DNA from: Oligoflexales bacterium
Lineage (GTDB): Bacteria > Bdellovibrionota_B > Oligoflexia > Oligoflexales > JALZUQ01
NCBI GenBank assembly: GCA_023301565.1
Contig: JALZUO010000008.1
Location: forward strand, 37,045 to 101,044
Direction: 5' to 3'
DNA: 64,000 nucleotides
Numbering within the stretch: position 1 is the first letter of the stretch; each line of letters opens with the position of its first letter. This document shows, piece after piece, positions 43,270-64,000 of the stretch. The notes under the pieces are model-generated. The model was not told where the DNA came from and made no database searches. It was given only the letters and a program-made list of their open reading frames with translations. The position numbers and the translations under genes are program-made.

Positions 43270-43549
43270 AATCTATCTCTCTTAAACTGTATCTAGCCGT
43301 GAAAGGGCCTTTAAACGCATCTATACTAGCCTGCAGGTTATAAAATTATTGAAGCGCTGGATAGAGGGTTTCTAAGATTGCCTGTTTAAGGTCCTTTGGT
43401 GTCTATTATTTGCTGTAATAACAGTGGTTTAGGTGGGGTTAATTTTTGGCTTTTTTCTTTCGAACCTACGGTTTTTATTTCCAGAGGTAGGTTTTCTTTC
43501 GCTTTTCTATGGTGTAGCTCTATGGATGCGCTTCTTAGATGGGAAATCG

Positions 43550-44992: not shown

Positions 44993-45067
44993 CCAAGGTC
45001 AATATGCGTTGCTTCTGATCGTGCTAAAATACTGTAGACGTTTACCCAAAGTGTTTGGATTGGTATT

Positions 45068-46066: not shown

Positions 46067-46079
46067 GTTTGCAGCACTG

Positions 46080-47975: not shown

Positions 47976-48236
47976 CCTTACCCAGTTTCGTTATTGGGCA
48001 GCCAGCTTAACGCTGGCTTTTGATGTAACGCAAGCGGCTTTAGAGCTTTAAGCGCTGCGTTCTTCAAAGCTTAGTATTATTCAAGGGTTGATCTGTGTTC
48101 AGAAGCCTAATCGATAGTCGAACTGCCTCTGAGATTCTTCTCTACTAGTATAAGTGTCGCGACTGGTTCATTTGAATGCATAATAGCCTGAGTTTAGAAA
48201 CGCGTAACACCGCTGGTTTTTTGTGGGTATTCTCTC

Positions 48237-49331
48237 TTAAATTTTTCTGTAGACATCCGTAATGTACATTTGGGTTTTTTCACAGTCTAAGGCACCCTGA
48301 AACTGGTCGGCACACATTTCAAATCCGCTTGTTTTTGGCCGCCATGGCATACGAAGGTAGCTTCGAACAATGGTCAAAGAGTCCTTTGCTAAGCCGCTGC
48401 TGGCCCTGTGGAGAAAGTTTTTTTCAGTCTGTCCACTAAAGTAGGAGGGGACATCCGATAGGGATAAAAAATCTATTTTGGCTGTTTGTCTTTCAGCTAC
48501 TTCAACAATATTTCCCTGCACATATTCGATGTCCGTTTGTTGAAGGTTTTTTTGCACGTCAGCAAATAATTTTTCATCGCATTCGACGGGATTGCCTTCT
48601 GGGTGCTTGATCCTCCCAAAAAACATCACTTGGAGGAAAAAATTTTCTCTTGCTAATGTATGCCTAAAAAGGTGGTCAAAAGCCTGTTTGTAATAGTTTA
48701 CGTGGGAGTAGGGGATGTTTTTTTTCGGGAAGTGGCCTTTGTACAATAGTGCGTTGAATATCCCAGCGTTTCCAAGGGCGAGAAGAACCAGCTTCCACTT
48801 TTTTTGTGGGAAGTTTTCTTTCATATAAGTTTGCTGCTCTTCTAGAGTGGTGCATTCAAAGACTTCAGCGCCAGATTTACCGGTTATTTTGCTGTTTATC
48901 TTTGCGAGTTTAGCAAATGATTTTTCCCATTTACCCTCGTAAATCAACCCGTTCCAGTCGATGGATCCATACGCTTTCTCTAAAAAATTCTTTGCTTCGG
49001 TAGAAAGGTCGAGGTTCTTAAAAACTTTCTTTCGGTTTGTACGCGACATTTCATTTCCAGCTTTAGTCGTATAACCTAAGAGACCTAAAAAGTCTTCGTG
49101 CTCTAAAATTTTTGCAGCTGCAAACCTCATTTCCGTCAGGTATAGCTGCTCGGCAGAAAGGTCAACGCAAGTTATCTTTTGAGCGCCGTTTGCTGCAATA
49201 GGCAATACCCTCCCACCACTTCCTGCAACTGATAATAGGTGATTCATGTTCCGTGGAGCGATGGCTACTTCGAATCCGGTGTCTTCATTTGCTAGGCTGT
49301 AGTTAAGTTTGTTGAAATACTGGAAACTCAT
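48237..49331 (-). CDS. DUF3419/BtaA-like protein (S-adenosylmethionine:diacylglycerol 3-amino-3-carboxypropyl transferase family)
   Basis: The N-terminal YSLANEDTGFEVAI...LSVAGSGGRVL...VDLSAEQLYL pattern is characteristic of this family. It is last in the minus-strand 4-gene operon. Confidence 0.7.
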   Translation of the reverse strand: MSFQYFNKLNYSLANEDTGFEVAIAPRNMNHLLSVAGSGGRVLPIAANGAQKITCVDLSAEQLYLTEMRFAAAKILEHEDFLGLLGYTTKAGNEMSRTNRKKVFKNLDLSTEAKNFLEKAYGSIDWNGLIYEGKWEKSFAKLAKINSKITGKSGAEVFECTTLEEQQTYMKENFPQKKWKLVLLALGNAGIFNALLYKGHFPKKNIPYSHVNYYKQAFDHLFRHTLARENFFLQVMFFGRIKHPEGNPVECDEKLFADVQKNLQQTDIEYVQGNIVEVAERQTAKIDFLSLSDVPSYFSGQTEKNFLHRASSGLAKDSLTIVRSYLRMPWRPKTSGFEMCADQFQGALDCEKTQMYITDVYRKI

Positions 49332-49361
49332 CGCGGGTGTTCCTTTTTTTATCTATGGACT

Positions 49362-51431
49362 TTAGGTTTGTGGGATTAATTGTTTTACATGTTTGCGGCA
49401 GTTTTCTACGTCACTTTCGGTAATCACCCCAAGCGGCCCCTGAATGGCCGAAAGCGAAGCCCCATGTTTTATGCCAAGTTTGTATATCTCTTTTACTTGC
49501 TCGATTTGAAGGTCGCGCCCCAACGAGAAATTCTCAAAACGACTTTCGAGCGTTAGCAGAGCAGTTTCTGCAAGGCAAGCATAGACTGATTTTCCTGGAA
49601 GTCCAATATCGCAGCTAAAGTTTAAAAGTCCAGGTAAATCAATCTCGCCACTTTCGATGACCATCACATCTGGCCTCCGCCGTGCATCTTCAGGTCCAAC
49701 ATCCAAAGGTCTTGAGCAGTCACATACCACAGCTCCCGGCTTTAGCAGGTCCATATCAAGTACCTTTTCATTTTGTGCGGAGGTAGCTGTAACCACAAGA
49801 TCTACATCTCGCAGCTCGTCGATGACTTTGGTTTTAATCTGTACTTTAGTTCCTGGGTATTTTTCTAGAATCTCCTGTTTCAACTCTAATAGCCTATCTG
49901 GCCTGGTGGCTACTAGTAATAGCTCGTCATAGACCGTTGCCAGAAGCATAGTCGATACTTTTCCAATGCTTCCGGTAGCGCCAATGACGGCAGCTTTGCC
50001 TCGAATCCTTCGGTCGTTGATCTTGCGGCTGACAAACCCAAGTCTGTCAACCATCGCTCTTGCTGCCCAAAGGGTTGCTGAAGCTGAATAGGAGTTTCCA
50101 TTTGTCACGGGGATTGGAGACCTATTAGCTACTGTGATGCCGCTATCTCCGACAACTTTAGTATATGCCCCCAGACCCATCATAGAGCAGCCAGAAAGAT
50201 GTGCTGTTTTTGCCACGTCTACCAGCCGTTTGTATATAAACTCTTCTTTCATGGCCAGCATGCGTTTGGGCGTGGCTGGAATGGCATAAAGTTCGCAAAG
50301 GATTTCTTGTCCTGTCGCTTTGCTTTTAATTCCAGAAATCGTGCCGTGGGAGATGGCGGGGAGATAAGCTACGCAGGACTCTGCAAGGTTTTGCACCTTT
50401 TGTGGGGTGCTTTCTATCCATTTTAGCTTTGGGTTACGAAAAATATCTTTTCTACTTAGTGGGTGTATCACAAAGGCAAACCTCTGAAAGCTAAGTCCCA
50501 GGTTCTCTACTTTTTTTGGTTTTACTTCATACTTGCCGATTAGGTTCATTATGTAATCGTTAAAGCTGTCTTGTGAGTCCTGTGTGATACGTAGTTGATC
50601 TACAATTGCTTGCATGGCCGAAAACGACTTAAATTTTTGAACCTTTATACCAGGTATGTCGGGTGATATCTCTAGAATGCGAGAAACCCCGGACGCCTTT
50701 AGCTTGTCTTTTAGTTTTGGTGGGATAAAATCAACAACCAAGGTTTTACCTTTTAAAACATCAAAGCTACCGATTTGATCTAGAAGGGATCCAAAACTGA
50801 CAAACATGTCTGATGCTTTGATCCATGATCTTAAGCGGTTCATCGAGTTGTAGTCTTTTTTAGTAATTAGCGGTCTGCTTTTAGGGTGCCAGTTTGAAAT
50901 AATGGGTTTTAGCCACTGTAGCAGTGTCCCTAGACGCTCCAGAGACTTAATTTTAAAGGGTAAACCAGCCATTACCAGAGCGTCAGCGCAGATAACGTTT
51001 GCTCCAGCATCGGCAATGTTTTGCAGAAATGGGCTTGAAACAGCAAAATGAAAGAGTACTTTTTTTGCGTTAAAGAATTGTGGTTCTTTTTTAAGAACTT
51101 GTTTTAGAGTCCAATCGGCAAAAATCTTTCTAAGTTCAACCCCGGTGTAAAGCGGGGATGTTTGCACCATACGCATTAAATCTCGGGTTGCTCTGTGGTA
51201 AGCTACCTTTTTTCCAGCTTGAACACGCGTAACCAAGCCATTGATAGCTATCGCATCTGCATAGCCGTCAAACTGCTTGATTAGTGTTGCCGCTGCCTTA
51301 AAATTCCACCCGATGCTGTGCGTGATGATTGTAAACTGTACCCCTTGGACGTCGATCACTTCTTTGTGGGGGATGTCCTCGACCAAAAAGTTCAAAATCA
51401 CAATAATTCGTTGTTTTTGATTTTTTTTCAT
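49362..51431 (-). CDS. Fusion protein: unknown ~330-aa N-domain plus acyl-ACP reductase (AAR)-like NAD(P)-binding C-domain
   Basis: The C-terminal half is collinear with cyanobacterial acyl-ACP reductase (FAFVIHPLS, GLGAYTKVV, TNGNSYSASA, AAVIGATGSIGKV, YACLAETALL with the conserved Cys, NFSLGRDLQIEQVKEI). Confidence 0.7.
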   Translation of the reverse strand: MKKNQKQRIIVILNFLVEDIPHKEVIDVQGVQFTIITHSIGWNFKAAATLIKQFDGYADAIAINGLVTRVQAGKKVAYHRATRDLMRMVQTSPLYTGVELRKIFADWTLKQVLKKEPQFFNAKKVLFHFAVSSPFLQNIADAGANVICADALVMAGLPFKIKSLERLGTLLQWLKPIISNWHPKSRPLITKKDYNSMNRLRSWIKASDMFVSFGSLLDQIGSFDVLKGKTLVVDFIPPKLKDKLKASGVSRILEISPDIPGIKVQKFKSFSAMQAIVDQLRITQDSQDSFNDYIMNLIGKYEVKPKKVENLGLSFQRFAFVIHPLSRKDIFRNPKLKWIESTPQKVQNLAESCVAYLPAISHGTISGIKSKATGQEILCELYAIPATPKRMLAMKEEFIYKRLVDVAKTAHLSGCSMMGLGAYTKVVGDSGITVANRSPIPVTNGNSYSASATLWAARAMVDRLGFVSRKINDRRIRGKAAVIGATGSIGKVSTMLLATVYDELLLVATRPDRLLELKQEILEKYPGTKVQIKTKVIDELRDVDLVVTATSAQNEKVLDMDLLKPGAVVCDCSRPLDVGPEDARRRPDVMVIESGEIDLPGLLNFSCDIGLPGKSVYACLAETALLTLESRFENFSLGRDLQIEQVKEIYKLGIKHGASLSAIQGPLGVITESDVENCRKHVKQLIPQT

Positions 51432-52423
51432 GTTTGGTTCTCCGCGCCTTTAAACATCGCCTTTTCGTATGATTTAAATGCAGGGATTCTGCAGTCGTGA
51501 AAATCTTTTTCGAATTCTGAGTTTTCGAGTTGAGGTGTGTCAGCAGCATATTGAAAAATATCTCGCGGAGTGTTTGTAATGTATCCGACCAGGCTAGATA
51601 GCCTGTCTCCAAGCACTGGCAAGTAAACCATTCTATTTGTTAAGCCAAACTGTTTTTTCAGAGCTTTCGCAAAAGTGTGAACCCGAGTACTTTTTTTGTT
51701 GTATACACCGTAGATCTTTCGTTCAATGCCAATTTTGTGCAATGCTTCGTGCAGTACTTTTGCTGCGCTATCGACGGGGACAAACGGTAGAAAAGATTTC
51801 TTGTCAGCAAAAAACGGAATAGGAATCTTTGTAAATGAAAGTGTTTTTGACAATTTTTTTAAGGCTCTATAATTATAGTAGGGGCCATCAACTTTTTGTA
51901 TTTTTCCAGACTTCGAATCACCCACGAGAACCCCTAAGCGAAAAACGGTCCAATCAAACCTGGTGTTTGTCAGGCATTTTTCAGCAATAGCTTTGGTTCT
52001 AGCGTAGGAAAACTTTGCTTCTGGAAGTGCCGTGATAGGACCCTCCGGAAGATTCAGTCCCCACTGGTCTACGCCTACTGCATAGGTTGATGAAAAGAAG
52101 ATTTTGGGCTTACTGTTTGAACTCATCACCCATGAAATTAAGTTTGAAGTAGAAACCACATTTTGTACGTAATTCAAGCTTTCGTCTTTATCAAAGTCGT
52201 ACAAGCCTGCTAGGTGATAAATAGCATCAAAATCACATATAATAGTTTCGTGCAGCTCTGATATTTTCGTTAAATCAGCGCAGATAACCTTAACTTTTTT
52301 GTTTGTGTAGCTTGGGTTGCTTCGACTAACTATGGTGATTTCTGAAACTTTTTCGTCATCTACAAGATTTTCCATAAGTTTGGAGCCCAAAAAACCTGTA
52401 GCACCTGTAACAAATATTTTCAT
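51428..52423 (-). CDS. NAD-dependent epimerase/dehydratase-family SDR
   Basis: It has VTGATGFLGSKL and YARTK (YxxxK) motifs, and 4-nt overlaps with both neighbouring genes. Confidence 0.85.
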   Translation of the reverse strand: MKIFVTGATGFLGSKLMENLVDDEKVSEITIVSRSNPSYTNKKVKVICADLTKISELHETIICDFDAIYHLAGLYDFDKDESLNYVQNVVSTSNLISWVMSSNSKPKIFFSSTYAVGVDQWGLNLPEGPITALPEAKFSYARTKAIAEKCLTNTRFDWTVFRLGVLVGDSKSGKIQKVDGPYYNYRALKKLSKTLSFTKIPIPFFADKKSFLPFVPVDSAAKVLHEALHKIGIERKIYGVYNKKSTRVHTFAKALKKQFGLTNRMVYLPVLGDRLSSLVGYITNTPRDIFQYAADTPQLENSEFEKDFHDCRIPAFKSYEKAMFKGAENQT

Positions 52424-53361
52424 GACCGGATCAGCTCCACTGCGTGTATGGGTTCAAGCAACGTTAATGCGTGGTGTTTGACCTTGAATTTTAAAAAAGG
52501 TGCTTCAAGAATCACCTCACCGTCACCAAACACCTTTATGTGCTTGCCTTTTATGGACGTTACTTTGCATTCTTTAGTTTGAATCACGTAACTATTAGAA
52601 ACCCCTAGTCTGGTCTTGCTTTTAACCAGTGAGCTTATGAGCTCGTAGCGTTTGTTTGCCGATGTGACTATAAATTCAAATTTCCCATCATCTGGTTTTG
52701 ACTCATCGCAGGCAAGGATGTTGCCGCCTAGTGTGGACTGATTGCATGCAAAAAAAGAAGAAACATCGATATCTTCCATGAACCCAGGTGCCTCGATCCG
52801 GACTTTATGCATGAATTTTCTGCTTGTCATTATTTCTTTTATTGCAATAAATGAATAAGCTTTACTCTTGTACTTCTTCCACAGCAGTCGAAACCAGCTG
52901 TATTTTTCTCTATAGTTATTTACATGTCCTGCGAGTTCGGAGCCAATTCCAAATCCGCCTACCGTAGCAAAGGGTATTCTATTGACGGTCAACACATCGA
53001 CTTTTTTGAAACTAGCATTTGCCAGAGAGCTTTTTAGGAGCTCTGGGTCCGCACGCCAGCCGTGTTGTCTAGAAAAATCATTTGCCGTGCCTGTTGGGTA
53101 GGGGATTACAGGTACCTTTGCCGTAATCAAAGCGGGTAGCAACCTATTTAAGGTTCCATCACCACCTGCGATAATTGTAGCAAGTACTGAGCCAGGTTTT
53201 TGTTTTTTTAGAAAGCTAGAGGTCTCTTCGATAGAGCCAGAGGTGCACCAGTCTATCTGGAATCCTTTTAGGGCTTGTCTCAGTTCTTTATAAAGCACCT
53301 CTGAAGCCCGCTGACCAGCAGAAGGATTTACAACAATGGCAACTTTGGCTTTTGTCTTCAA
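52420..53361 (-). CDS. Diacylglycerol-kinase-catalytic-domain lipid kinase (YegS/LCB5-like)
   Basis: It has IIAGGDGTLNRLL and PTGTANDFSR motifs, and is first in the minus-strand operon. Confidence 0.85.
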   Translation of the reverse strand: MKTKAKVAIVVNPSAGQRASEVLYKELRQALKGFQIDWCTSGSIEETSSFLKKQKPGSVLATIIAGGDGTLNRLLPALITAKVPVIPYPTGTANDFSRQHGWRADPELLKSSLANASFKKVDVLTVNRIPFATVGGFGIGSELAGHVNNYREKYSWFRLLWKKYKSKAYSFIAIKEIMTSRKFMHKVRIEAPGFMEDIDVSSFFACNQSTLGGNILACDESKPDDGKFEFIVTSANKRYELISSLVKSKTRLGVSNSYVIQTKECKVTSIKGKHIKVFGDGEVILEAPFLKFKVKHHALTLLEPIHAVELIRS

Positions 53362-53637
53362 TTATGACCCCTTTTTAAGGTTTATATGCTGAAGATTACT
53401 TCTATGGCTACAAAGAATTGCTTTAAACAGGTGGCAGCTTGTCGCACCTAAGCGGGGTGAGGATAAAATCTATAAAATACAGTGACTTGTAAGCTCGTTC
53501 GCACTGGTAGCTTGATTTTGTGGCGTTTTTGGGGCCATTGCCCTTTGTGTGATCTGCGAAAAAATGCTTTAAATCCGGTGAGGTTCCAATAGGTATAAAT
53601 GGGTTAAGTTTGCGCTTAGCCGAAGAGAGAGGGCGTT
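53362..53637. promoter_or_regulatory. Divergent control region of the lipid-type divergon
   Basis: This is a 276-bp spacer between the head-to-head 4-gene (minus) and 7-gene (plus) operons. No promoter hexamers could be assigned confidently. Confidence 0.35.
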
Positions 53638-54387
53638 TTGCTAAAAGCAGTGGTGGTAACATCTCAGTTGCACTTTGTTCCCGGAAACTATTCTGGATTT
53701 TTAGGTGCACTTGCTAAATGTCCACAGATTCACGGGATGATTGTGCTGAACAACCTTGAGGCGAAATACCTTTTAAAAGCTTCAGCTTTGTTTTTTGCTG
53801 GAGCAACTAGCACTGGTTCAAACCTTGCCAAAAACTACTTTAGGGCCCTCATAGGGAACCAGAAGTCAGTGTGGGAAAGCCAGGGTAAAAAAGTTTGGCA
53901 GTTTGATCATATCAACGACCCTGCCGTCACGCAGCTAGTGAAGGATCAAGAAGTTGATCTTTTGGTGAATGCTAGGACCAGGTTTATTTATAAAGAAGCA
54001 ATTTTAAAAGCGCCGACCTATGGTTGTATTAATATTCATCATGGGCTGCTTCCCGACCAGCGTGGGACTATGTGTGATTTATGGTCTCTTGCCGAAGGCA
54101 GGGAGGCTGGTTTCTCCATACACCTAATGAATCAAAAAATCGATGATGGTGGAATACTCGGGACTTTCCCTGTAGCGGCCGCAGGCTCAGAAAAAAGCTA
54201 TGAGGGCTACCTGCAAAGGTCTGAACGCGTCGAAGCTCAAGCCATTAAGGGAGTGTTGGCCTCTATTGAAAAACAGGGGCAGATCCCTCCAACAAAAACA
54301 AACGTGCGGTTGAAAAACAGACCCCACTATAAGAATCCGACCCTTTGGCAGATTGGGCAGTTTCGCAGGCAGGGGTTAAAACTATGA
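53638..54387 (+). CDS. Formyltransferase-domain protein (Fmt/ArnA N-domain-like)
   Basis: INIHHGLLPDQRGTM (the HxxLLPxxRG motif) and IDDGGIL match the formyl_trans_N catalytic core. It has a TTG start. Confidence 0.75.
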   Translation: MLKAVVVTSQLHFVPGNYSGFLGALAKCPQIHGMIVLNNLEAKYLLKASALFFAGATSTGSNLAKNYFRALIGNQKSVWESQGKKVWQFDHINDPAVTQLVKDQEVDLLVNARTRFIYKEAILKAPTYGCINIHHGLLPDQRGTMCDLWSLAEGREAGFSIHLMNQKIDDGGILGTFPVAAAGSEKSYEGYLQRSERVEAQAIKGVLASIEKQGQIPPTKTNVRLKNRPHYKNPTLWQIGQFRRQGLKL

Positions 54388-55154
54388 ACAGCTTTTTGCT
54401 TTATTGTATTCATGGAATTCCTGGTGACACAGGTGATTTTGATGTAGTCGGACAGGGCTTAGCCGGGACGGAGTTCTTGGCCTCAGGGAGCTCTGCTGCA
54501 GAAATGCGTACTTTCAATATGGAAGCTGAGGTTTCTTTAGACCGCCTTACAGGTAGACTTGCTAAAAACATTGAACATCAAAAACCTGATGTCATAATGG
54601 CTTACTCTTGGGGTGCTTACTTAGTTCTTAAAACATTTGAAATGCACCCAAAAGCTTTTGAAGGAAGAAAAGTTTTTTTCATCAATCCAACAATTTTATT
54701 AACGGAAAAATTAGGGTTCGTAAGTAAACTTTTGGCTAGGAGCTCTGTTCTCGCTAGAGTTGTGTTTTTACTTTTATCCAAAAATCTTGCGCGAAAACAT
54801 TTAGCAAAATCCATAGCGCCTGGGAAAGTTGATGATGCGCTGTGGCAGCGGCTTTTTGTTCGCTATCAAGGCAGTAGGCTTTGGTGGCTGGCTCTAAAAC
54901 GCAAACAGCTTATGAGCAAGTTTCCATTAAAAAAACTTAGCTGTGAAATAGAGAAGGCTAGCTTAGATGTCCTAGGCTGGATTGTCGGAGAAAAAGACTT
55001 GTCCGTACCGTATGAGCCGCAGTTAAAGGTTGCAGCTTTGGCGGGGATCAACACTGCTCAGGTTAAGGTGGTTGCAGGTGCAGGGCATGGTCTCTTGTGG
55101 ACAAATGCAAATGAAATTATAGAAGCAACTTTGTCTGGACAGCAGAAAACCTAA
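54384..55154 (+). CDS. Alpha/beta hydrolase
   Basis: ATGA overlap links it to the preceding gene. It has a nucleophile elbow (AYSWGAY) and a C-terminal GAGHGLLW His motif. Confidence 0.7.
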   Translation: MNSFLLYCIHGIPGDTGDFDVVGQGLAGTEFLASGSSAAEMRTFNMEAEVSLDRLTGRLAKNIEHQKPDVIMAYSWGAYLVLKTFEMHPKAFEGRKVFFINPTILLTEKLGFVSKLLARSSVLARVVFLLLSKNLARKHLAKSIAPGKVDDALWQRLFVRYQGSRLWWLALKRKQLMSKFPLKKLSCEIEKASLDVLGWIVGEKDLSVPYEPQLKVAALAGINTAQVKVVAGAGHGLLWTNANEIIEATLSGQQKT

Positions 55155-55171
55155 AAGAAAATGGGAAAAAA

Positions 55172-56935: not shown

Positions 56936-56936
56936 A

Positions 56937-57848
56937 ATGGGTTCTGTAAGCAATTGGCTTCAATTTGCAAAAGAACGATTTCCTCTTGTGGAACACGGCG
57001 TAATGCTCGGATTTTTTACGCTTGGAAATTTTATGGTGGCTTTGAATTTTTCTGGTGTTGACCCTGCCGGAGTATTTTTAGAAGGCTTTGTTCTTTTTAT
57101 CGTTACTTTTTTGTTTTTCTTTCGGCTTCGCTGTTTTGATGAAGTGAAGGACTATGAGGTAGATCTGGAACAAAACCCGACACGGCCACTTGCACGTGGT
57201 TTGCTTAGCGTATATGCGGCAAAGAAAATGATTTTTCTGCTAGCAGGTGTTGAGTCGTTTTTGATGTTCTGGTTCTTTTTTGACAGTTTTTTTGTCTATG
57301 CTTTGGCATTGGTTTATAGCTTTTTAATGTACAAAGAATTTTTTGTGGGTGATTTGCTGCGGCCGCAGCTTACCTTGTATGCGGTTTTTCATACATTTGT
57401 CTCGGTGATGGTTGGTCTTTTTATTGTTGCAGGTGCCTTGGGCTATAGCTTTAGTGAGCTTCCCGTGGGTCTCGTAGTTTTTTCGTTGACCAACTGGGCT
57501 TTGTTTAATTTGTTTGAGTTTGCAAGAAAGACTTTTAGTCCTTTAGAAGAAAGGGCAGGCGTGGATACTTACTCCTCTTTATTTGGGCCCAAGGGTGCGG
57601 CTGCATTAAGCTTGAGTCAGGTCGTGTTTGGGTGTTTTGTCTTGGCTCAGAGTCAAACTAGCGTGCTTTGCTACCCTTGGAGCCAATATATTCTTGCGTT
57701 GCTGCCTGTTAGCGCTGGGGTTTGCTATGCGCTAGCACCGAACAGGTACGCCAAGTTGTTCCGTACTGGTACGGGTGCATACCTGGTTCTTTTTTATCTG
57801 GTTTTAAGCGTACAAGCTTATATAAGTATTTTAGCAAATAGAGGCTAG
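56937..57848 (+). CDS. UbiA-superfamily-like polytopic membrane (prenyl)transferase
   Basis: It has about 8-9 hydrophobic helices and an Asp/Glu-rich loop after helix 2 (FRLRCFDEVKDYEVDLEQNPTRPLARG), resembling the first UbiA motif with atypical spacing. Confidence 0.55.
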   Translation: MGSVSNWLQFAKERFPLVEHGVMLGFFTLGNFMVALNFSGVDPAGVFLEGFVLFIVTFLFFFRLRCFDEVKDYEVDLEQNPTRPLARGLLSVYAAKKMIFLLAGVESFLMFWFFFDSFFVYALALVYSFLMYKEFFVGDLLRPQLTLYAVFHTFVSVMVGLFIVAGALGYSFSELPVGLVVFSLTNWALFNLFEFARKTFSPLEERAGVDTYSSLFGPKGAAALSLSQVVFGCFVLAQSQTSVLCYPWSQYILALLPVSAGVCYALAPNRYAKLFRTGTGAYLVLFYLVLSVQAYISILANRG

Positions 57849-57859
57849 GGGCAAATAAT

Positions 57860-60568
57860 ATGTTGGTTCAAAAAACTTCGACGCGGTATTTTGCCAAAAA
57901 AGAAGCTGGCGGAAAAGGTTTTAACCTTTACCGGTTGACGAACGCAGGCGTTTCGGTCCCTGCTTGGGAGGTTCTTGGTAAACGTTACTTTGAGCGATTT
58001 CTAGAGTCTAACAAGCTAACAGAAAAGATAGATGACTACGTTGCGGCCCTTGAAGCAAAAAAGATGACTGCCAGAGAGTGCTCTGCTGCTGTTTCCTCTT
58101 TAATTGTAAATGGAAATATAGATCACGAGACAGCCGGGTTTATTCGGCAGTCTTATGCCGGCCTTTGTAAGGAAGAGTCTGTGCAAATGATTTCAGTGCG
58201 TTCATCAGCAGCAGATGAAGATGGCGGGTCGCACTCGTTTGCAGGGCAGCTTTCTAGCTACCTCTATGTTTCTAGTGCAGAGGATGCCATCGAACGCGTC
58301 AAGCAATGTTGGGCCTCAGGCTTTACAGAGCGCGGGATAGCGTACCGGGTTCAGAACAGCCTTGATTTGAAAAGTATACGGGTAGCTGTTGTTCTTCAGG
58401 CAATGATTGACCCTGAAAAATCGGGGGTCGGTTTTTCTGTGGACCCTACCGTAGCTGGAAGCCAGGAGATGCTTGTAAGCTCCGTATACGGGGTAGGCGA
58501 AGGGATTGTTTCAGGCGAGCTCGATGGAGACAGCTACTGGATCTCAAAAGATACGCTTTCTTGTAGAAAAGAACATATAGTCACTAAAGAACACAAGTTT
58601 ATAAAGGCAAGCTCTGGGGATTGTAAGCAAGAACTTGTGCCGGTTGAGTTGCAGTCGGTTTCCTCTTTGAGCTCGGACGAGCTTGCTCAGGTAGCATCCA
58701 CTCTTAAAAATATCGAACAGCTGTATAGGTACCCGCAAGACGTAGAGTGGGCCATACGAAACGCTAAACTCTATATTCTGCAAACACGGCCCATTACTAC
58801 TATAAAAGAAAACCAAACAGGCTATCTGAATCTTTGGGATAACTCTAATATTGTAGAAAGCTATGGTGGGCTCACCTCCCCGTTGTCTTTTACCTTTGCC
58901 CTAAAAAATTACAAGAACGTATACATACAGTTTTGTGAGATTCTTTCCGTGCCTTCAAAGCTGGTCAAAGAGATGGAATCCTATTTGGGCTTTATGCTTG
59001 GAAGTTTCAATGGTCGGGTTTTTTATAACCTTTATAACTGGTACAAGCTGGTTGGGGTTCTGCCTGGGTTCAAGCAAAACAAGCAGTTTATGGAAACCAT
59101 GATGGGTGTCGGTCAAGAGCTTTCTCCCGAGGTTACAAAACGCGTAAGCCCACACCCGTCTTGGGACACAGTCTGGGGTAAGTTTCGTAAATTTAAAACC
59201 GGCGTTGCCTTTGTTTATTACCACTTTTTTATCCAAAGTATTGTAGACAGGTTTTTAAGAGATTTTCGGGTAGAGTATGACAAGTTTCGCAAACTAAACT
59301 ACGAGACGATGTCTAGCGATGAAATTTTTGCTAAATACCTAGAGATGGACCGGGTAATGCTTTTGCGCTGGAAAGCTCCTATCATCAATGACTTTCTTTG
59401 TATGGTGCACTTTGGAATGCTCAAAAAGTTAACCAACAAGTGGCTTGGCCGCCTCGATACAAATATTCAAAATGATCTACTTGCAGGTGAGGGTAACCTG
59501 GAAAGTGCAGAGCCTACCAAAACAATGATCCGCATGGCCGGAGAGATCACGGCTAACCCAGAACTTGAAAAGATTTTTGCAAGCGAGCCTGCAGGAGATC
59601 TTTATGAAGTTTTAAGTCAGTCGCAGCACACGGATTTTTTTGCGCAAGTAGAAGGGTATTTAGATCGATTTGGCTTTCGCTGTATGAACGAGATGAAGCT
59701 TGAAGAGTTTGATTTGAGTTCTGATCCTAAGTTTTTGTTTGTCTGCATCAAGAATTTTTTGAAGGCAGGTATCACCGATCTTGAAGAGTACGAACAGCGA
59801 GAAAAAAAACTACGTAAAAAAGCTGAAATTGCCATCGGCAAAGAACTACGAGGCTGGAAAAGCTGGGTCTATAAATTTAGCCTAAAACATGCGAGAAAAG
59901 CTGTTAAAAACAGAGAAAACACAAGGTTTAGCCGCACGCGTGCTTATGGCGTCGCAAGGTCAATGTTTAGAAACATGGGAGCGAAGTTTGCACAAATGGG
60001 AGCTCTCGATGATGGCGAAGATATTTTTTATCTAGAGCTTGGTGAGATCGTAGGCGTGCACAACGGTACTTTGACCTGCCAAAACCTAAAGGCTCTAGCG
60101 GAGCTTCGAAAACGTGAATATAGAAGCTATGAAGACTTAGAGCCGAAAATACGTTTTCAAACCCGTGGTCCTGTCTATTGGAGAAACCAATACCTCGATG
60201 TGCCAGAGGTTCCGAAGATGGAAGAGGGTGCCGATTATGATTTGAAGGGGCTTGCATGTTGTCCTGGTGTTGTCGAAGGGACAGTGAAAGTGGTGCACTC
60301 GCCGGCAGATGACATGAGTATGAATGGTGAAATTCTTGTCGCAAAAAGAACCGACCCAGGCTGGGTGCCCTTGTTCCCAAGCGCTTCGGCGCTTTTAGTT
60401 GAGCGTGGTAGTCTACTGTCTCATTCGGCTATTGTTGCACGGGAGATGGGGATACCAGCTGTAGTTGGAATTGCTGGTCTATTGACTACACTGAAATCGG
60501 GAATGAGGGTTCGTATGGATGGTACGGCCGGTACAGTGAAGATTTTGGAGCAAGGACCTAATGACTAA
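57860..60568 (+). CDS. PEP-utilising enzyme: PPDK_N ATP-grasp domain + long central domain + C-terminal swivelling His domain (rifampicin-phosphotransferase-like architecture)
   Basis: The N-terminus reads AGGKGFNLYRLTNAGVSVPAWEVL...QDVEWA...LYILQTRPIT. The C-terminus reads GEILVAKRTDPGWVPLF...ERGSLLSHSAIVAREMGIPAVVG. There is no PEP-binding TIM-barrel domain. Confidence 0.8.
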   Translation: MLVQKTSTRYFAKKEAGGKGFNLYRLTNAGVSVPAWEVLGKRYFERFLESNKLTEKIDDYVAALEAKKMTARECSAAVSSLIVNGNIDHETAGFIRQSYAGLCKEESVQMISVRSSAADEDGGSHSFAGQLSSYLYVSSAEDAIERVKQCWASGFTERGIAYRVQNSLDLKSIRVAVVLQAMIDPEKSGVGFSVDPTVAGSQEMLVSSVYGVGEGIVSGELDGDSYWISKDTLSCRKEHIVTKEHKFIKASSGDCKQELVPVELQSVSSLSSDELAQVASTLKNIEQLYRYPQDVEWAIRNAKLYILQTRPITTIKENQTGYLNLWDNSNIVESYGGLTSPLSFTFALKNYKNVYIQFCEILSVPSKLVKEMESYLGFMLGSFNGRVFYNLYNWYKLVGVLPGFKQNKQFMETMMGVGQELSPEVTKRVSPHPSWDTVWGKFRKFKTGVAFVYYHFFIQSIVDRFLRDFRVEYDKFRKLNYETMSSDEIFAKYLEMDRVMLLRWKAPIINDFLCMVHFGMLKKLTNKWLGRLDTNIQNDLLAGEGNLESAEPTKTMIRMAGEITANPELEKIFASEPAGDLYEVLSQSQHTDFFAQVEGYLDRFGFRCMNEMKLEEFDLSSDPKFLFVCIKNFLKAGITDLEEYEQREKKLRKKAEIAIGKELRGWKSWVYKFSLKHARKAVKNRENTRFSRTRAYGVARSMFRNMGAKFAQMGALDDGEDIFYLELGEIVGVHNGTLTCQNLKALAELRKREYRSYEDLEPKIRFQTRGPVYWRNQYLDVPEVPKMEEGADYDLKGLACCPGVVEGTVKVVHSPADDMSMNGEILVAKRTDPGWVPLFPSASALLVERGSLLSHSAIVAREMGIPAVVGIAGLLTTLKSGMRVRMDGTAGTVKILEQGPND

Positions 60569-61916
60569 GAGTTTCTGTTACAGCTTTCTTTTTGTTTTAC
60601 TATTTTTCGTGTCAACAGTTTGCAGCATATGTGGTGCAAAAAACATCGATGACTACTCTCGAAAAGTACAGAAGAGAAAAAAAGCAAAGATTAGGCTAGT
60701 TTCTCAAGACGAAGCAGAAACAGGCGAGAGTGCATGGGAGTGGAATGGTAAGGTTTTTTTATCCGGCCGCTATTTTCCACGTGAAGACACTCCCTTTTTA
60801 GCTGTTGAAAAGAAAGAGTCCTGGAACCTGGCAGTGACGGCTGCTCCAGAAATAAAGTATAGCCACAGTAAATTAACCTTTAAGCTAGCTCCTTTTGCTC
60901 GCTTTGATGCAGTAGATAGCGAAAGGTCTGATTTTGATTTTCGGCAAGCTTATGCCTCCTACAGTCTGAAGAAAACAGATATCAAGATTGGCTTCGATGT
61001 AGAAAACTGGAGCGTTCTTGAGTTTGGCCGTGTGGTGAATATTATAAACCAGCAGGATATCAAAGAGTCCTTGTTTTTAGATAGCTACCTTGGTCAACTT
61101 ATGTTTTCTGTGCAGAGCCATCAAAGGTTTGGGAGTTTTCATTTATATTTGATGCCTACCTTTAGGCCTATGTTTTTCTTCCCACCAGAATCAAGGCTCT
61201 CGTTTGGGCCAAGTTTTGAGGAGGTTTCAGCCGACCCCTTGTTGGGATCTAGGTCTGACTCTCACCTAGACGTTCTTTTGCGTTATAGTCATTCGTTTGG
61301 TCCGGTTGACCTCGGGGCCTACGGCTTTTATGGGACTAGCCGTACCCCAGACCTGGAGCTTAGTTCTCAGGGTGGTTCAGCTTTAGGATCTGCCTTACCT
61401 TTCTTTTTGCAATCTTACCCAACAGTTACTCAGTTTGGGCTGGATCTTCAGGCAAGTGTTGGTGGTTTTCTACAAAAAATAGAAGCAACGTTTAGGGTCT
61501 GGGATGACAAAGAGCAGGTTAACCTTGGGGTAGGGGCAGAATACAGTTTCTCTTCTATCTTTGGCTCTAGCATGGACCTTGGGCTGTTCTCGGAGTTTTA
61601 TTATAGCAACCTAGAAAACAAACAAAGTGGCTCTAGGGCAGGGGTTACGGTCTTTGCTCCGTTGCAGCGCGACATTTACGGAGGTGTACGCCTTTCCTAT
61701 GTTGGGCAGACTACACTCAGCCTTGTTCTTGCGGTTTCTCGGGATTTACAGCACCAGACGGACTCTTTGGCTTTGAAGGGTGAGTATAAGTTTGCAAGTA
61801 ACTGGGGTTTTGGCATTGAAGGATGGGGGCTTACCCGGGTGAGCGCAAAAGATGCGCTGCTGTTTCCTTTTAGGCATGATAGATTCTTAAGTATGACGGC
61901 GGACTACTACTTTTAG
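60561..61916 (+). CDS. Outer-membrane beta-barrel protein (hypothetical)
   Basis: It has a signal peptide, alternating strand pattern and the terminal beta-signal ...MTADYYF. It overlaps the previous gene by 8 nt. Confidence 0.7.
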   Translation: MTKSFCYSFLFVLLFFVSTVCSICGAKNIDDYSRKVQKRKKAKIRLVSQDEAETGESAWEWNGKVFLSGRYFPREDTPFLAVEKKESWNLAVTAAPEIKYSHSKLTFKLAPFARFDAVDSERSDFDFRQAYASYSLKKTDIKIGFDVENWSVLEFGRVVNIINQQDIKESLFLDSYLGQLMFSVQSHQRFGSFHLYLMPTFRPMFFFPPESRLSFGPSFEEVSADPLLGSRSDSHLDVLLRYSHSFGPVDLGAYGFYGTSRTPDLELSSQGGSALGSALPFFLQSYPTVTQFGLDLQASVGGFLQKIEATFRVWDDKEQVNLGVGAEYSFSSIFGSSMDLGLFSEFYYSNLENKQSGSRAGVTVFAPLQRDIYGGVRLSYVGQTTLSLVLAVSRDLQHQTDSLALKGEYKFASNWGFGIEGWGLTRVSAKDALLFPFRHDRFLSMTADYYF

Positions 61917-61959
61917 TTCTCCTCTGTTTGTTTATCTGCTGGTTTGAGGGGTACCTGTA

Positions 61960-64000
61960 GTGGTTGGTTTCGTTAAAAAATTATTGCAATCGCCTCGAAG
62001 AGGCGTGATCTGCTTTTTGTTAGCGTTATGTGCTCTAGTTGTTTGTAGCGGCGTGACCCGGCTAGGGTTTGATAATGATCCAAGGGTCTATTTTTCGAAA
62101 GACAACCCAGACCTCGTTGCTTTTGAAGATTTCGAAGAGACCTATAAGCGCGACGACACGATTTTTTTTGTCGTTCAATCAAAAAGCGGTAGCATTTTTA
62201 AAATAGAAAATCTTCGAGCTATTTGGGAGCTTACAGATAAAGCTTGGGGTATGGAAAATGCCGAACGCGTAGACTCGCTTGTTAACTTTATGCAGGTTAG
62301 CACTGTCGGTGAAGACCTTCGCATTGAAGAGCTATTGCTTGAGCCAGAACTTTTGTCGCAAGAAAAACTCAGCGATATCAAGTCCTATGCGACAAACCAC
62401 CCTAGTATAATTGGACGCCTTGTTTCTACAGACAGCGCGACAACCTTACTAAAAGTAACCATGCTTGAGCCAGAAGGCGGTGAGCAGGTCCTGCGTTGCT
62501 ACAAAGAAGCCGATGTCCTTGCTAAAATGATGGAGAAAAAATACCCGGATCTAAAGATTGGCATCACAGGTACTTATGCCATAGCCAACACCTTTCATAT
62601 GGCAGGAGTTAAAGACGCCACATCTCTTTTTCCGTTGATGTTTGGGGTGATGTTTTTGATCACCTGGATGATTTTACGCAGTCTTATGGCTACGGTGATT
62701 GTGAATATAGTTCTCGTTTTAAGTTCGGTTACCGCGCTTGGCGTATTTGGCTGGCTTGGTTTTCCACTTAATTCAACCACTGCATCGGCTCCTATCGTGA
62801 TTCTTGTAATTGCCGTAGCGGACTCTATCCACATGTTTAGAGGGGTTCAGCGCTACGCAGGTCAGGGTAGCTCCTTGTATGATGCCGTAGTGCTTAGCTT
62901 GGAAAAGAATTTTTTGCCTATTTTCGTGACCAGTTTAACCACGATTTTTGGCTTTTTGAGTCTTGGTTTTAGTGAGGTCCCGCCCTTTAGAGAGCTTGGC
63001 TACTTAAGTGCTATCGGTGTTGCGGCTGCGTTTTTGTATTCAGTTGTGTTGCTCCCTCTTTTGACGGTTTGCTTCGGGGTGAAGTTATCAAACCATAAAG
63101 AGTTCAAATGGATTGCTGGACTACTAAACTTCTCGACGTCCCTATCAAGGTCTTATTTTCGCCAGGTTACTTTAGTTACTCTTGTAATAACTGCTCTTGC
63201 ACTCTACGGGATATCAGGTCTTCGAATTGGTGATAAAAACAGCGATTTTTTTGGTATGGAGTTTCCGTTTCGGCAAGCAGTAGAAATGCAAGAAAAAGCA
63301 TTCAAAGCTGGTCATGAGATTGAATTCAGCTTGGATGCACGGGAAGAGTCAGGGGTTTTCTCTCCGGCTTTTCTAGAGGATATGGAGCGCTTTCAAAGCA
63401 TGCTTGCAACGCACTCGATTGTCAGCCATACAGAATCCATCGTCACGGTACTTAAAGAGCTGCGTATGAATATGAATGGTGGGGACCCTGCTAGCTACGC
63501 GCTGCCAGCAAGCTCAGAAGAAGCCGCGCAGCTAATGCTTTTATATGAAACATCTCTGCCGCAAGGACGTGACCTGAACCTTCAGCTTAGCTCTGATCGG
63601 TCAAAAACCAGGGTCTCTGTAGTTGTCGATAATGTTTATACGGACGAACTTATAAGTTTGATTGGCCACTCTGAAAAATGGTTTTTGGTGGAAGCAAAGC
63701 ATGCCAGACTCGACGCCTCTACGGGGCAGTCTGTGCTTTGGTCAAAGCTCTACGAGCGTAACACTGTAGCAATGCTTAGAAGTATTTTAGTTGCGCTTTT
63801 AAGTATTACAATCACCCTGATCATTGTTATGCGCTCTTTTAGGCTCGGTCTTTTGAGCTTAATTCCTAACATCTCTCCTATCATTTTCACCTTTGGTGTG
63901 TGGTGCCTTCTCTATGACAAGATTGGAATCATCGCCTCCGCTGTCGTGGCTATGATGCTTGGGATCATAGTCGATGACACCGTCCATTTACTTGTGCAGT
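61960..64000 (+). CDS. RND-superfamily MMPL/HpnN-like exporter (partial, continues past window end)
   Basis: The frame is open from GTG 61960 to base 64000 and is not in the ORF track because no stop is reached. TM block 1 carries VILVIAVADSIHMF, a large periplasmic loop follows, and TM block 2 ends GIIVDDTVHLLVQ. This layout is typical of COG1033-type exporters. Confidence 0.85.
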   Translation, partial: MVGFVKKLLQSPRRGVICFLLALCALVVCSGVTRLGFDNDPRVYFSKDNPDLVAFEDFEETYKRDDTIFFVVQSKSGSIFKIENLRAIWELTDKAWGMENAERVDSLVNFMQVSTVGEDLRIEELLLEPELLSQEKLSDIKSYATNHPSIIGRLVSTDSATTLLKVTMLEPEGGEQVLRCYKEADVLAKMMEKKYPDLKIGITGTYAIANTFHMAGVKDATSLFPLMFGVMFLITWMILRSLMATVIVNIVLVLSSVTALGVFGWLGFPLNSTTASAPIVILVIAVADSIHMFRGVQRYAGQGSSLYDAVVLSLEKNFLPIFVTSLTTIFGFLSLGFSEVPPFRELGYLSAIGVAAAFLYSVVLLPLLTVCFGVKLSNHKEFKWIAGLLNFSTSLSRSYFRQVTLVTLVITALALYGISGLRIGDKNSDFFGMEFPFRQAVEMQEKAFKAGHEIEFSLDAREESGVFSPAFLEDMERFQSMLATHSIVSHTESIVTVLKELRMNMNGGDPASYALPASSEEAAQLMLLYETSLPQGRDLNLQLSSDRSKTRVSVVVDNVYTDELISLIGHSEKWFLVEAKHARLDASTGQSVLWSKLYERNTVAMLRSILVALLSITITLIIVMRSFRLGLLSLIPNISPIIFTFGVWCLLYDKIGIIASAVVAMMLGIIVDDTVHLLVQ

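Follow-up and report, generated by a model that had tools for sequence, protein, structure and literature searches.

A 64,000-nucleotide stretch of DNA from an Oligoflexales bacterium (assembly GCA_023301565.1, contig JALZUO010000008.1, positions 37,045 to 101,044), here called the window, carries two divergent operons in which known enzyme families probably make up a new pathway for the synthesis and export of a lipid. The window lies on a 226-kb metagenomic scaffold, and the parent scaffold was also read past base 64000. Eleven open reading frames (ORFs) had been proposed in a first-pass annotation; all eleven are present at the positions then given, and a carrier gene beyond the window brings the set to twelve.

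The minus-strand operon begins with a soluble DAGK/YegS-family lipid kinase (DAGK; 52420..53361, 313 aa), followed by an extended short-chain dehydrogenase/reductase of the FAR/thioester-reductase type (SDR; 51428..52423, 331 aa), a two-half fusion protein (FUS; 49362..51431, 689 aa), and a BtaA-family protein with an S-adenosylmethionine (SAM)-binding fold (DUF3419; 48237..49331, 364 aa). The plus-strand operon encodes a stand-alone formyltransferase domain of the N10-formyl-tetrahydrofolate type (FT; 53638..54387, 249 aa), an alpha/beta-fold serine hydrolase or acyltransferase (ABH; 54384..55154, 256 aa), an adenylate-forming acyl ligase (LIG; 55172..56935, 587 aa), a probable, divergent intramembrane transferase of the UbiA superfamily (56937..57848, 303 aa), an Rph/PigC-type ATP-dependent phosphotransferase (PEP; 57860..60568, 902 aa), an outer-membrane protein with a signal peptide that appears to be a distant DUF1302-type barrel (OMP; 60561..61916, 451 aa), and a probable HAE3-family RND transporter with a GTG start (MMPL; 61960..64000), which runs off the window end and measures 763 aa on the parent contig. 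The twelfth gene, on the same strand beyond the window, follows MMPL and encodes a LolA-like periplasmic carrier (271 aa).

On the plus strand, the genes are joined by an ATGA overlap, gaps of 17, 1, and 11 nt, an 8-nt overlap, and a 43-nt gap, all as first annotated, and the parent-contig gene list adds a 4-nt overlap between MMPL and the LolA-like gene. The 4-nt overlaps reported for the minus strand hold for two junctions; the third, between FUS and DUF3419, is a 30-nt gap. The start of ABH is ambiguous: the longest ORF begins at TTG 54345 (269 aa) and overlaps FT by 43 nt, and the parent-contig gene call uses ATG 54384, which gives the ATGA overlap. The divergent spacer (53362..53637) measures 276 bp, as annotated, and, judging by gene geometry, presumably holds the promoters of both operons.

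Family assignments made with Pfam and NCBIfam hidden Markov models agree with those of the first-pass annotation; the UbiA-like protein and OMP lack a direct Pfam match and were placed through profiles of their homologues. The C-terminal half of FUS (residues ~317-689) matches NF053554, over the N-terminal part of PigE (model positions 1-359 of 837), at 9.5e-47. It matches TIGR04058, the model for acyl-ACP reductase (AAR), at 9.9e-17, with 61.2 bits against a cut-off of 449.7, below equivalog level. PDB sequence matches include PigE (4ppm, 1.3e-24) and AAR (6jzq, 2.2e-10). Cys619 aligns with the catalytic cysteine of AAR ('YAC619LAE' against 'FACFAE'), and both this residue and a GATGSIG motif are invariant among FUS homologues. 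An AF2 model of FUS (pLDDT 88) finds AAR and carmabin TAD in Foldseek at E ~1e-17, with a TMt of 0.73 to 6jzu/6jzy. One study reports that the equivalent PigE domain reduces a thioester intermediate (PMC8341465). By its sequence and modeled fold, the C-terminal half of FUS is an AAR/PigE-type thioester-to-aldehyde reductase. The N-terminal half (residues 1-312, window 50496-51431) is an alpha/beta domain (pLDDT 89) that lacks both a Pfam match and a glycine-rich nucleotide motif; it resembles AAR/TAD, malic enzyme, GDH, and ATCase-like folds only weakly, at a TM of at most 0.5. An internal duplication of the AAR fold was considered and is not supported (TM ~0.5 between the N-terminal half and AAR; hhalign probability of 0.5% between the two halves).

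SDR belongs to PF07993 (NAD_binding_4, 7.7e-22), matches NF005539 (4.5e-33) and the TIGR01746 thioester reductase domain (1.9e-18), and overlaps FUS by 4 nt, consistent with a putative aldehyde (or thioester) to alcohol reductase. The kinase matches DAGK_cat (2.2e-17), YegS_C (8.8e-9), and the NF009604 lipid kinase model (2.8e-29), and a GGDGT motif is visible in its translation.

Activation of the acyl chain would fall to LIG and ABH. LIG matches PF00501 (AMP-binding, 6.5e-42) and, most strongly, the NF006754 fatty acid CoA ligase family (9.3e-104). Next among named models come long-chain FACL (1.3e-60) and OleC (3.5e-58), an activator of beta-hydroxy acids; the scores against the fatty-acid CoA ligase models and OleC are all below cut-off. 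The best PDB matches are FadD5 and FadD13. ABH is an Abhydrolase_6 protein (1.5e-6) with an HGxPG motif and a Ser75, Asp205, His235 triad, invariant in seven homologues. In three loci, ABH and LIG are fused into one protein of 805-839 aa: the complete Bdellovibrio bacteriovorus genome (L089 6725-9142, CP160490.1), L172 (6603-9083), and L173 (6535-9054). This Rosetta-stone link indicates that ABH and LIG act together. The B. bacteriovorus operon is headed by an extra long-chain FACL-type ligase.

Two proteins appear to build the head group. DUF3419 matches PF11899 at 2.8e-36 over residues 5-346 of 364, the family of the betaine-lipid synthases BtaA/BTA1 (PMC10685587), and is a putative head-group (3-amino-3-carboxypropyl) transferase. 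FT matches PF00551 (Formyl_trans_N, 6.4e-14) and, at 249 aa, lacks the C-terminal domain of Fmt and ArnA. Its PDB matches with a stated substrate are all amine N-formyltransferases, namely Fmt (4iqf, 3e-11), sugar N-formyltransferases, ArnA, and the LgrA F domain. The catalytic NxH...D motifs align (CINIHHGLLPDQRG and KIDDGGIL), and the alignment with Fmt 4iqf conserves N-I-H-x-x-L-L-P and D-D-G. FT is a putative N-formyltransferase of the head-group amine.

The UbiA-like protein of the window has no Pfam match at E<=0.01. It matches the NF010118 prenyltransferase model at 9.2e-16 (58 bits against a cut-off of 443), and 12 of 19 homologues match PF01040, the best at 3.1e-13. The best PDB matches of the family profile are digeranylgeranylglyceryl phosphate (DGGGP) synthase (6m31, 8.5e-10) and chlorophyll synthase. 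Invariant residues are R65, D68, E69, K71, D72, D76, E194, R197, and K198. The first aspartate-rich motif of UbiA enzymes (NDxxDxxxD) is present as the variant DExKDxxxD, aligned with NDIFDIEID of 6m31; where the second would be expected, no conserved DxxxD was seen by eye in the alignment. The family numbers 1592 representatives at 50% identity in a library of 1.84 billion proteins.

PEP combines PPDK_N (3.6e-75), PEP-utilizers (6.6e-24), and Rph_4th domains in a layout of ATP-grasp, central domain, and swivelling His domain. Among PDB structures it comes closest to Listeria Rph (5fbs, 4.2e-80), and it matches the PigC model at 5.3e-110; 20 homologues all keep His855. Equivalog scores are low for both relatives (Rph, 323 bits against a cut-off of 999; PigC, 369 against 1300), and by sequence PEP is a different subfamily of the Rph/PigC architecture. 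NCBIfam NF004881, 'phosphoenolpyruvate synthase', scores PEP at 1072.8 bits, above its cut-off of 883. A true phosphoenolpyruvate synthase (PpsA) was rejected because the PEP/pyruvate-binding TIM-barrel domain, PEP-utilizers_C, is absent; for the same reason the name is probably wrong for PEP, and annotation pipelines probably misname the whole clade. PEP homologues at 54-63% identity carry labels from several phyla.

Conservation of the locus was followed through two neighborhood searches, one anchored on FUS in species-representative genomes and one anchored on PEP in metagenome contigs. FUS aligns in at least 594 loci, of which the best 80 (34-47% FUS identity) were analyzed; the PEP-anchored scan confirmed 228 loci, and again the best 80 were analyzed. 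Gene counts derive from ORF clustering of each set of 80. Neighbors were counted within 10 kb of the anchor, and many contigs are too short to decide on the full set. The best 80 FUS loci are labeled mostly Bdellovibrionota (Oligoflexia, Bacteriovoracia, and Bdellovibrionia, including cultured Bdellovibrio strains); the rest are mostly Chloroflexota, with a few other labels.

Across these ~160 related loci (22-64% protein identity), the cluster genes are kept together, colinear or divergent, and the flanking genes are not. Around FUS, the most frequent companions are SDR (adjoining it in 55 of 80 loci), DAGK (53, as first gene of the minus operon), and DUF3419 (47), followed by LIG (29), PEP (27), and UbiA (25); all seven core genes fall within 10 kb of FUS in 19 of the 80 species-level loci. 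Around PEP, LIG is found in 57 loci, UbiA in 54, and DUF3419 in 47, with LIG-UbiA-PEP as the recurrent core. The PEP gene is recurrently linked to UbiA-like and ligase genes, not to resistance or pyrrole genes. Both arms form a single colinear operon, DAGK-SDR-FUS-DUF3419-FT-(ABH)-LIG-UbiA-PEP, in L004, L009, L060, L072, and L094. The divergent layout of the window recurs in ~12 other loci, the two arms are adjacent in ~30, and in the complete 3.78-Mb B. bacteriovorus genome (CP160490.1) they lie 2 kb apart. The FT-ABH-LIG-UbiA-PEP core also occurs in metagenome-assembled genomes (MAGs) labeled Methylococcaceae and Planctomycetota. The neighborhood check proposed in the first-pass annotation, with FUS and PEP as queries, thus finds the set co-occurring widely in both samples. 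Loss of synteny in relatives had been named beforehand as evidence against a functional unit; the genes are kept together, and chance juxtaposition is excluded.

FUS is also found on its own. In Chloroflexota (L056, L057, and L061, comprising Herpetosiphon and other Chloroflexia; L071, L074, and L078-L082), no other cluster gene lies within 10 kb, and the Herpetosiphon FUS loci share a different, conserved neighborhood.

The key result comes from the 80 PEP-anchored loci, where the pattern is one of non-orthologous DISPLACEMENT: the functions that accompany the core are filled by mutually exclusive proteins. Reduction is represented by FUS in 17 loci, usually with SDR, or by a protein resembling 3-hydroxy-3-methylglutaryl-CoA (HMG-CoA) reductase (PF00368, 3e-104) in 21, and by both in none. 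On its own, HMG-CoA reductase takes a thioester to a primary alcohol by four-electron reduction, equivalent to an AAR-type step plus a FAR-type step. Phosphorylation is represented by DAGK in 15 loci or by other candidate kinases in 21, and again by both in none. DAGK gives way either to an APH-type kinase joined to the HMG-CoA reductase or to the polytopic proteins k14 and k20, in which a DxxAxxxGxxxG motif was seen by eye; we take this motif to be that of phytol and dolichol kinases, a weak assignment of k14 and k20 as CTP-dependent. N-acylation is represented by FT in 13 loci or by a 350-aa, weakly GNAT-like protein in 37, with no locus holding both.

Head-group chemistry varies as well. 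L090 and L173 carry a fusion of a PssA/archaetidylserine-synthase-like domain (3.5e-22) with a domain like CDP-archaeol synthase (CarS, 2.4e-8), and L157 carries a CDP-alcohol-transferase gene placed by position and length only; none of these three gammaproteobacterial loci has DUF3419 within 10 kb. In L090 (1-3486, MAG label Methylococcaceae) and L173 (1992-5758, label Gammaproteobacteria), two fusions adjoin the FT-ABH-LIG-UbiA-PEP core, an HMG-CoA reductase::APH-type kinase of 840-952 aa and the PssA-like::CarS-like protein of ~400 aa. The GNAT-like variants (L024, L028, L130, L132, L133, L150, L151, and others) often add a cytochrome P450, and some add a metallo-beta-lactamase-fold protein or c18, a protein of 230-250 aa with no family match; these may provide tailoring steps. 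The pattern of replacements suggests that the pathway needs reduction of an activated carboxylate to an alcohol, phosphorylation of a lipid alcohol, an amine-bearing head group, N-acylation of that head group, and transport to the outer membrane.

Transport was first annotated as a beta-barrel OMP plus an RND exporter. The RND assignment is borne out, and HAE3 is the probable family: in the window, MMPL matches the MMPL family (5.1e-22) and shows MMPL, Patched, and sterol-sensing domains, and the full-length protein (763 aa) matches TIGR00921 (HAE3) at 2.7e-51 (174.5 bits against a cut-off of 351.9) and HpnN at 8e-24. The carrier encoded after it has a signal peptide and matches PF17131 (LolA_like, 2.5e-58) and PF07044 (DUF1329, 2.6e-7, 30.7 bits against a cut-off of 23.1). 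OMP itself, whose translation shows an N-terminal signal sequence, has no Pfam or NCBIfam match. The window OMP is matched at 1.3e-13 by a profile of those OMPs whose genes neighbor LolA-like genes in related loci, and at 5.8e-12 by one subfamily alone; a member of this set reaches PF06980 (DUF1302) at 8.7e-7, scoring 28.7 bits where the cut-off is 23.2. By this transitive link, the window OMP appears to be a distant DUF1302-type protein, and the exporter as a whole resembles the AmeABCD and PP_0765-0766 HAE3 cassettes. A phmmer comparison of the window OMP with the other locus OMPs found nothing, the connection being made through profile searches only. In tblastn against the other FUS-anchored loci, OMP has no match and MMPL has one weak partial match (L025, 25% identity over 43% of the query); the 10-kb FUS flank misses both genes in divergent layouts, so these searches say little on the conservation of either gene. 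The MMPL and LolA-like pair also sits beside the cluster in L158, L162, L165, and L166. Two kinds of exporter are seen across the loci, an HAE3 RND protein and a MacB/FtsX ABC transporter; both come with a LolA-like protein and a DUF1302-like barrel.

Upstream of the minus operon (window 43433-47975) lie genes for a Na/sulfate-citrate-type symporter, a T2SS-F-like membrane protein, and a tail-specific (S41) protease. The protease, the sole flank gene of the three that was checked, stands beside the cluster in none of the 80 FUS-anchored loci and, not being conserved, serves as a negative control for the clustering. No sigma-70-like site stands above background inside the spacer (53362-53637), a consensus scan of 47900-54000 found promoter and terminator sites no more numerous than in shuffled controls, and an Rfam scan of the whole 64-kb window returned no family at threshold.

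The enzyme families, their intact catalytic motifs, the conserved clustering, and the functions that substitute for one another across lineages are shown by the analysis. That the locus is one conserved unit making and exporting a lipid-like amphiphile can be held with high confidence. Such a unit for making, phosphorylating, and exporting an envelope lipid had been proposed from the window alone, and the colinear nine-gene operons and the same-chemistry replacements of reductase, kinase, N-acyltransferase, and exporter in other lineages uphold it. The fuller proposal, of a modular unit in which a non-canonical, amphiphilic envelope lipid is made and taken to the outer membrane through activation, reduction, phosphorylation, UbiA transfer, head-group addition, N-formylation, and export, is the reading we favor, at somewhat better than an even chance. 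The reaction scheme, in which we infer every step and the order of steps, merits moderate confidence and the exact product low confidence. The most likely candidate would be an ether-type lipid with an N-formylated amino-acid head group, exported to the outer membrane. An ether-linked or fatty-alcohol-derived product had been suggested at the outset and remains plausible given that the UbiA-like profile is nearest the ether-forming DGGGP synthase; the product itself is a proposal.

In the proposed scheme, ABH and LIG would capture a fatty acid and convert it to an activated adenylate or thioester. This acid may carry a 3-hydroxy group, an attractive option given that HMG-CoA belongs to the 3-hydroxyacyl-CoAs and that beta-hydroxy acids are substrates of OleC-type ligases. 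Through Cys619, the AAR/PigE-type domain of FUS would reduce the thioester to an aldehyde, the FAR-type SDR would carry the aldehyde to a primary alcohol, and the DAGK-type kinase would phosphorylate that alcohol. The DGGGP-synthase-like UbiA enzyme might then add a second hydrophobic chain to this backbone, the bond between them probably being an ether. By analogy with the route from phytol through phytyl phosphate and phytyl diphosphate to a UbiA-type transferase, the ATP-driven Rph-type enzyme may phosphorylate one partner, for example from a lipid monophosphate to a diphosphate. The DUF3419/BtaA-like enzyme would add a SAM-derived aminocarboxypropyl (amino-acid) head group, and FT would N-formylate its amine. 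Export would start with the HAE3 RND transporter, which would pull the lipid out of the inner membrane; the LolA-like protein would ferry it across the periplasm, and the DUF1302-like barrel would receive it at the outer membrane.

Several points weigh against this scheme. The type of acid (plain, 3-hydroxy, or 2-enoyl), the donor and acceptor of the UbiA enzyme, the substrate of the Rph-like enzyme, and the reaction order are all presumptive. Canonical UbiA enzymes use allylic diphosphates, and a saturated alkyl diphosphate would be a poor donor. E194, R197, and K198 appear, in an alignment read by eye, to take the place of the second UbiA aspartate-rich motif. The usual acceptor of BtaA is a free hydroxyl, and a phosphorylated alcohol sits poorly with that. 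The CarS-like and PssA-like domains of the gammaproteobacterial loci imply that the head group is placed on the alcohol phosphate, leaving the Rph-like step unexplained. The alternative kinases k14 and k20 are weakly assigned (k14, CTP_transf_1 at 2e-4). Some loci hold only DAGK-FUS-DUF3419 plus an exporter (L002) or DAGK-SDR-FUS (L006) within 10 kb; because one arm only is found near the anchor in such loci, the two modules may be separable. FUS, moreover, stands alone in the Chloroflexota loci.

A bolder form of the proposal is tentative and more likely wrong than right. It holds that Bdellovibrionota and the MAGs labeled Gammaproteobacteria and Planctomycetota make a new class of outer-membrane lipid in which a fatty-acid-derived alcohol or diol phosphate backbone replaces glycerol. 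A second chain would be ether-linked by the DGGGP-synthase-like enzyme, making this a bacterial, non-isoprenoid parallel to archaeal lipid assembly. An N-formylated or N-acylated amino acid would serve as head group, and a dedicated HAE3/LolA-like/DUF1302 route would carry the lipid to the outer membrane, which would supply that orphan transporter class with a defined physiological cargo.

Among the alternatives, the best placed, if improbable, is that an ordinary polyprenyl diphosphate serves the UbiA enzyme as donor for the prenylation of a small hydroxy or aromatic acid, after which LIG activates the carboxylate of the prenylated acid for reduction and phosphorylation, and the product is an isoprenoid-anchored polar lipid or a quinone-like cofactor instead of a lipid derived from a fatty alcohol. 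To our knowledge, all well-studied UbiA enzymes use isoprenoid diphosphates, and the best PDB matches of the family profile, DGGGP synthase and chlorophyll synthase, fit this idea, which also needs no donor-synthesis gene. In 21 loci, FUS and SDR give way to HMG-CoA-reductase-like enzymes, which are known to act on a small hydroxy-acyl-CoA. However, the AAR- and FAR-type reductases, the DAGK-type kinase, and the FACL-like ligase point to long-chain substrates, as does the extra long-chain FACL at the head of the B. bacteriovorus operon. No aromatic-acid or polyprenyl-diphosphate synthase gene recurs in the ~160 loci, and the role of the Rph-like enzyme is still unexplained.

Rather less probable is a diffusible or surface-released secondary metabolite secreted by the RND transporter, either of the beta-lactone/olefin type, with ABH and LIG acting like OleB and OleC, or formed by a PigC/PigE-style aldehyde condensation. 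Sequence scores lend this idea some appeal (LIG against OleC, 3.5e-58; PEP against PigC, 5.3e-110; FUS against the N-terminal part of PigE, 9.5e-47), SDR weakly matches OleD models, and the P450 and metallo-beta-lactamase-fold genes of some variants look like tailoring enzymes. The ABH::LIG fusion also resembles the OleBC fusions of actinobacteria. The Ole and Pig scores nevertheless fall far below family cut-offs, and no OleA thiolase, pyrrole, polyketide synthase, or nonribosomal peptide synthetase gene is found. The nucleophile of ABH is a serine, whereas that of OleB is an aspartate. A lipid kinase together with BtaA-, PssA-, and CarS-like head-group enzymes is a hallmark of membrane-lipid assembly, LolA-like, DUF1302, and HAE3/HpnN transporters are linked to envelope lipids and hydrophobes, and retention across three Bdellovibrionota classes suggests a core rather than an accessory trait.

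Quite unlikely is a role in the uptake, salvage, or remodeling of exogenous hydrophobes such as prey lipids or fatty esters, in which the RND/LolA-like/DUF1302 proteins would follow the AmeABCD or PP_0765/0766 model, ABH would be an esterase, and LIG would be the salvage ligase. Bdellovibrio does reuse prey lipids. In Pseudomonas putida, DUF1302/DUF1329 genes give fitness defects on fatty esters, and an esterase or uptake function has been put forward for them (bioRxiv 10.1101/2020.07.04.188060). A link to monoterpene metabolism is described for AmeABCD (PMC6394551). Against this, the core is present in MAGs labeled Methylococcaceae and Planctomycetota, lineages without known predators, and the alcohol-forming reductases, formyltransferase, SAM-dependent head-group enzyme, and UbiA transferase are anabolic, with no conserved beta-oxidation genes at the locus. 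That two unrelated operons are neighbors by chance in this genome is scarcely credible: some loci have only the DAGK-(SDR)-FUS-(DUF3419) arm within 10 kb (L002, L006, L064-L068), but at least five loci have the arms in a single colinear operon and ~30 have them side by side, the minus-arm DUF3419 is found in 47 of 80 loci anchored on the plus-arm PEP, and the flanking genes are not conserved.

If the favored reading of an exported envelope lipid is true, a sizeable group of bacteria has an undescribed membrane-lipid pathway, with the UbiA-like marker numbering ~1,600 representatives and the close PEP homologues spanning several phyla. The predicted combination of fatty-acid reduction, archaeal-style ether-forming and CDP/serine chemistry, and head-group N-formylation would bear on the bacterial/archaeal 'lipid divide' and on how predatory bacteria make an outer membrane unlike the one their prey has. 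It would also provide a natural substrate for two large orphan groups, the HAE3/DUF1302/DUF1329 cassettes and the Rph-like 'phosphoenolpyruvate synthase' proteins. The pattern of non-orthologous replacement gives a concrete, testable assignment for each step, and B. bacteriovorus, which carries the locus in its complete genome, is a genetically tractable predator.

The first-pass annotation had recognized no described pathway in the gene set. A full-text literature search, covering topics that included Bdellovibrio lipidomics and DGGGP synthase in Bdellovibrio, likewise found no description of the biosynthetic set and documented only the transporter type and the PigE reductase; its coverage is incomplete, missing most subscription journals, and so does not prove novelty. 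The same annotation had set aside hopanoid, diacylglyceryl-trimethylhomoserine (DGTS), aryl polyene, and cyanobacterial alkane synthesis, and rightly so: the locus has no hopanoid genes, BtaB-type methyltransferase, ketosynthase/acyl carrier protein, or ADO.

The individual enzymes have known relatives in several systems. FUS shares its fold (Foldseek ~1e-17), catalytic cysteine, and NAD(P)H motif with AAR, PigE, and carmabin TAD. It differs from these in its extra 312-residue N-terminal domain and in having no partner ADO or aminotransferase domain, and it scores far below the AAR equivalog cut-off (61 against 450 bits). PEP shares the three-part architecture of Rph and PigC/RedH, with scores far below their equivalog cut-offs. 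A prodigiosin-like reading was rejected on the PigC- and PigE-like scores, which are far below cut-offs, and on the lack of pyrrole genes at the locus. The OleABCD pathway was rejected as well: there is no OleA thiolase, LIG reaches 197 and 192 bits where the OleC cut-offs are 900 and 850, SDR reaches 38 and 34 where the OleD cut-offs are 580, and the ABH nucleophile is Ser.

DUF3419 shares PF11899 membership with the BtaA/BtaB route to DGTS, but FT or the GNAT-like protein accompanies it in place of BtaB. Membership in the DGTS pathway was rejected on the lack of a BtaB N-methyltransferase, with no methyltransferase gene at the window locus or among recurrent neighbor clusters, and ordinary diacylglycerol is an unlikely acceptor lipid for DUF3419.

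The export genes find their closest parallel in AmeABCD of Castellaniella defragrans and in PP_0765/PP_0766 with PP_2018/2019 of P. putida, whose three parts, an HAE3 RND transporter, a LolA_like/DUF1329 protein, and a DUF1302-related OMP (PMC6394551; bioRxiv 10.1101/2020.07.04.188060), appear to have counterparts here. Compared with these systems, the locus OMP is much smaller (451 against 605 aa) and only distantly related, and the fourth component, AmeC/BNR (Ycf48-like), was not found downstream of the operon in L088. The locus cassette sits in a biosynthetic operon rather than a catabolic island, and many relatives exchange it for a MacB-type ABC transporter.

Plant phytol salvage offers an analogy for the phosphorylation steps. 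Phytol is phosphorylated by the VTE5 phytol kinase and again by the VTE6 phytyl-phosphate kinase before use by UbiA-family phytyltransferases. The likeness lies in a lipid alcohol that would be phosphorylated twice and then used by a UbiA-family enzyme, and some variants of the locus hold weakly CTP_transf_1-like proteins (2e-4) at the DAGK position. The second kinase here would be of the Rph/PEP-utilizing type rather than VTE6, and the alcohol would come from thioester reduction rather than from an isoprenol, so the comparison is one of analogy only.

Archaeal phospholipid synthesis, through DGGGP synthase, CarS, and archaetidylserine synthase, resembles the locus in the UbiA-like profile, nearest DGGGP synthase, and in the CarS-like::PssA-like fusion of the gammaproteobacterial loci. 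Membership in the archaeal lipid pathway was rejected for lack of glycerol-1-phosphate (G1P) dehydrogenase and geranylgeranylglyceryl phosphate (GGGP) synthase genes. The locus also has no geranylgeranyl diphosphate (GGPP) synthase, its hosts are bacteria, its backbone apparently derives from reduction of an activated carboxylate, and in the window DUF3419 replaces CDP chemistry. The two systems would nonetheless share a common logic, in which an ether-forming intramembrane transferase acts on a phosphorylated backbone and an amino-acid head group follows.

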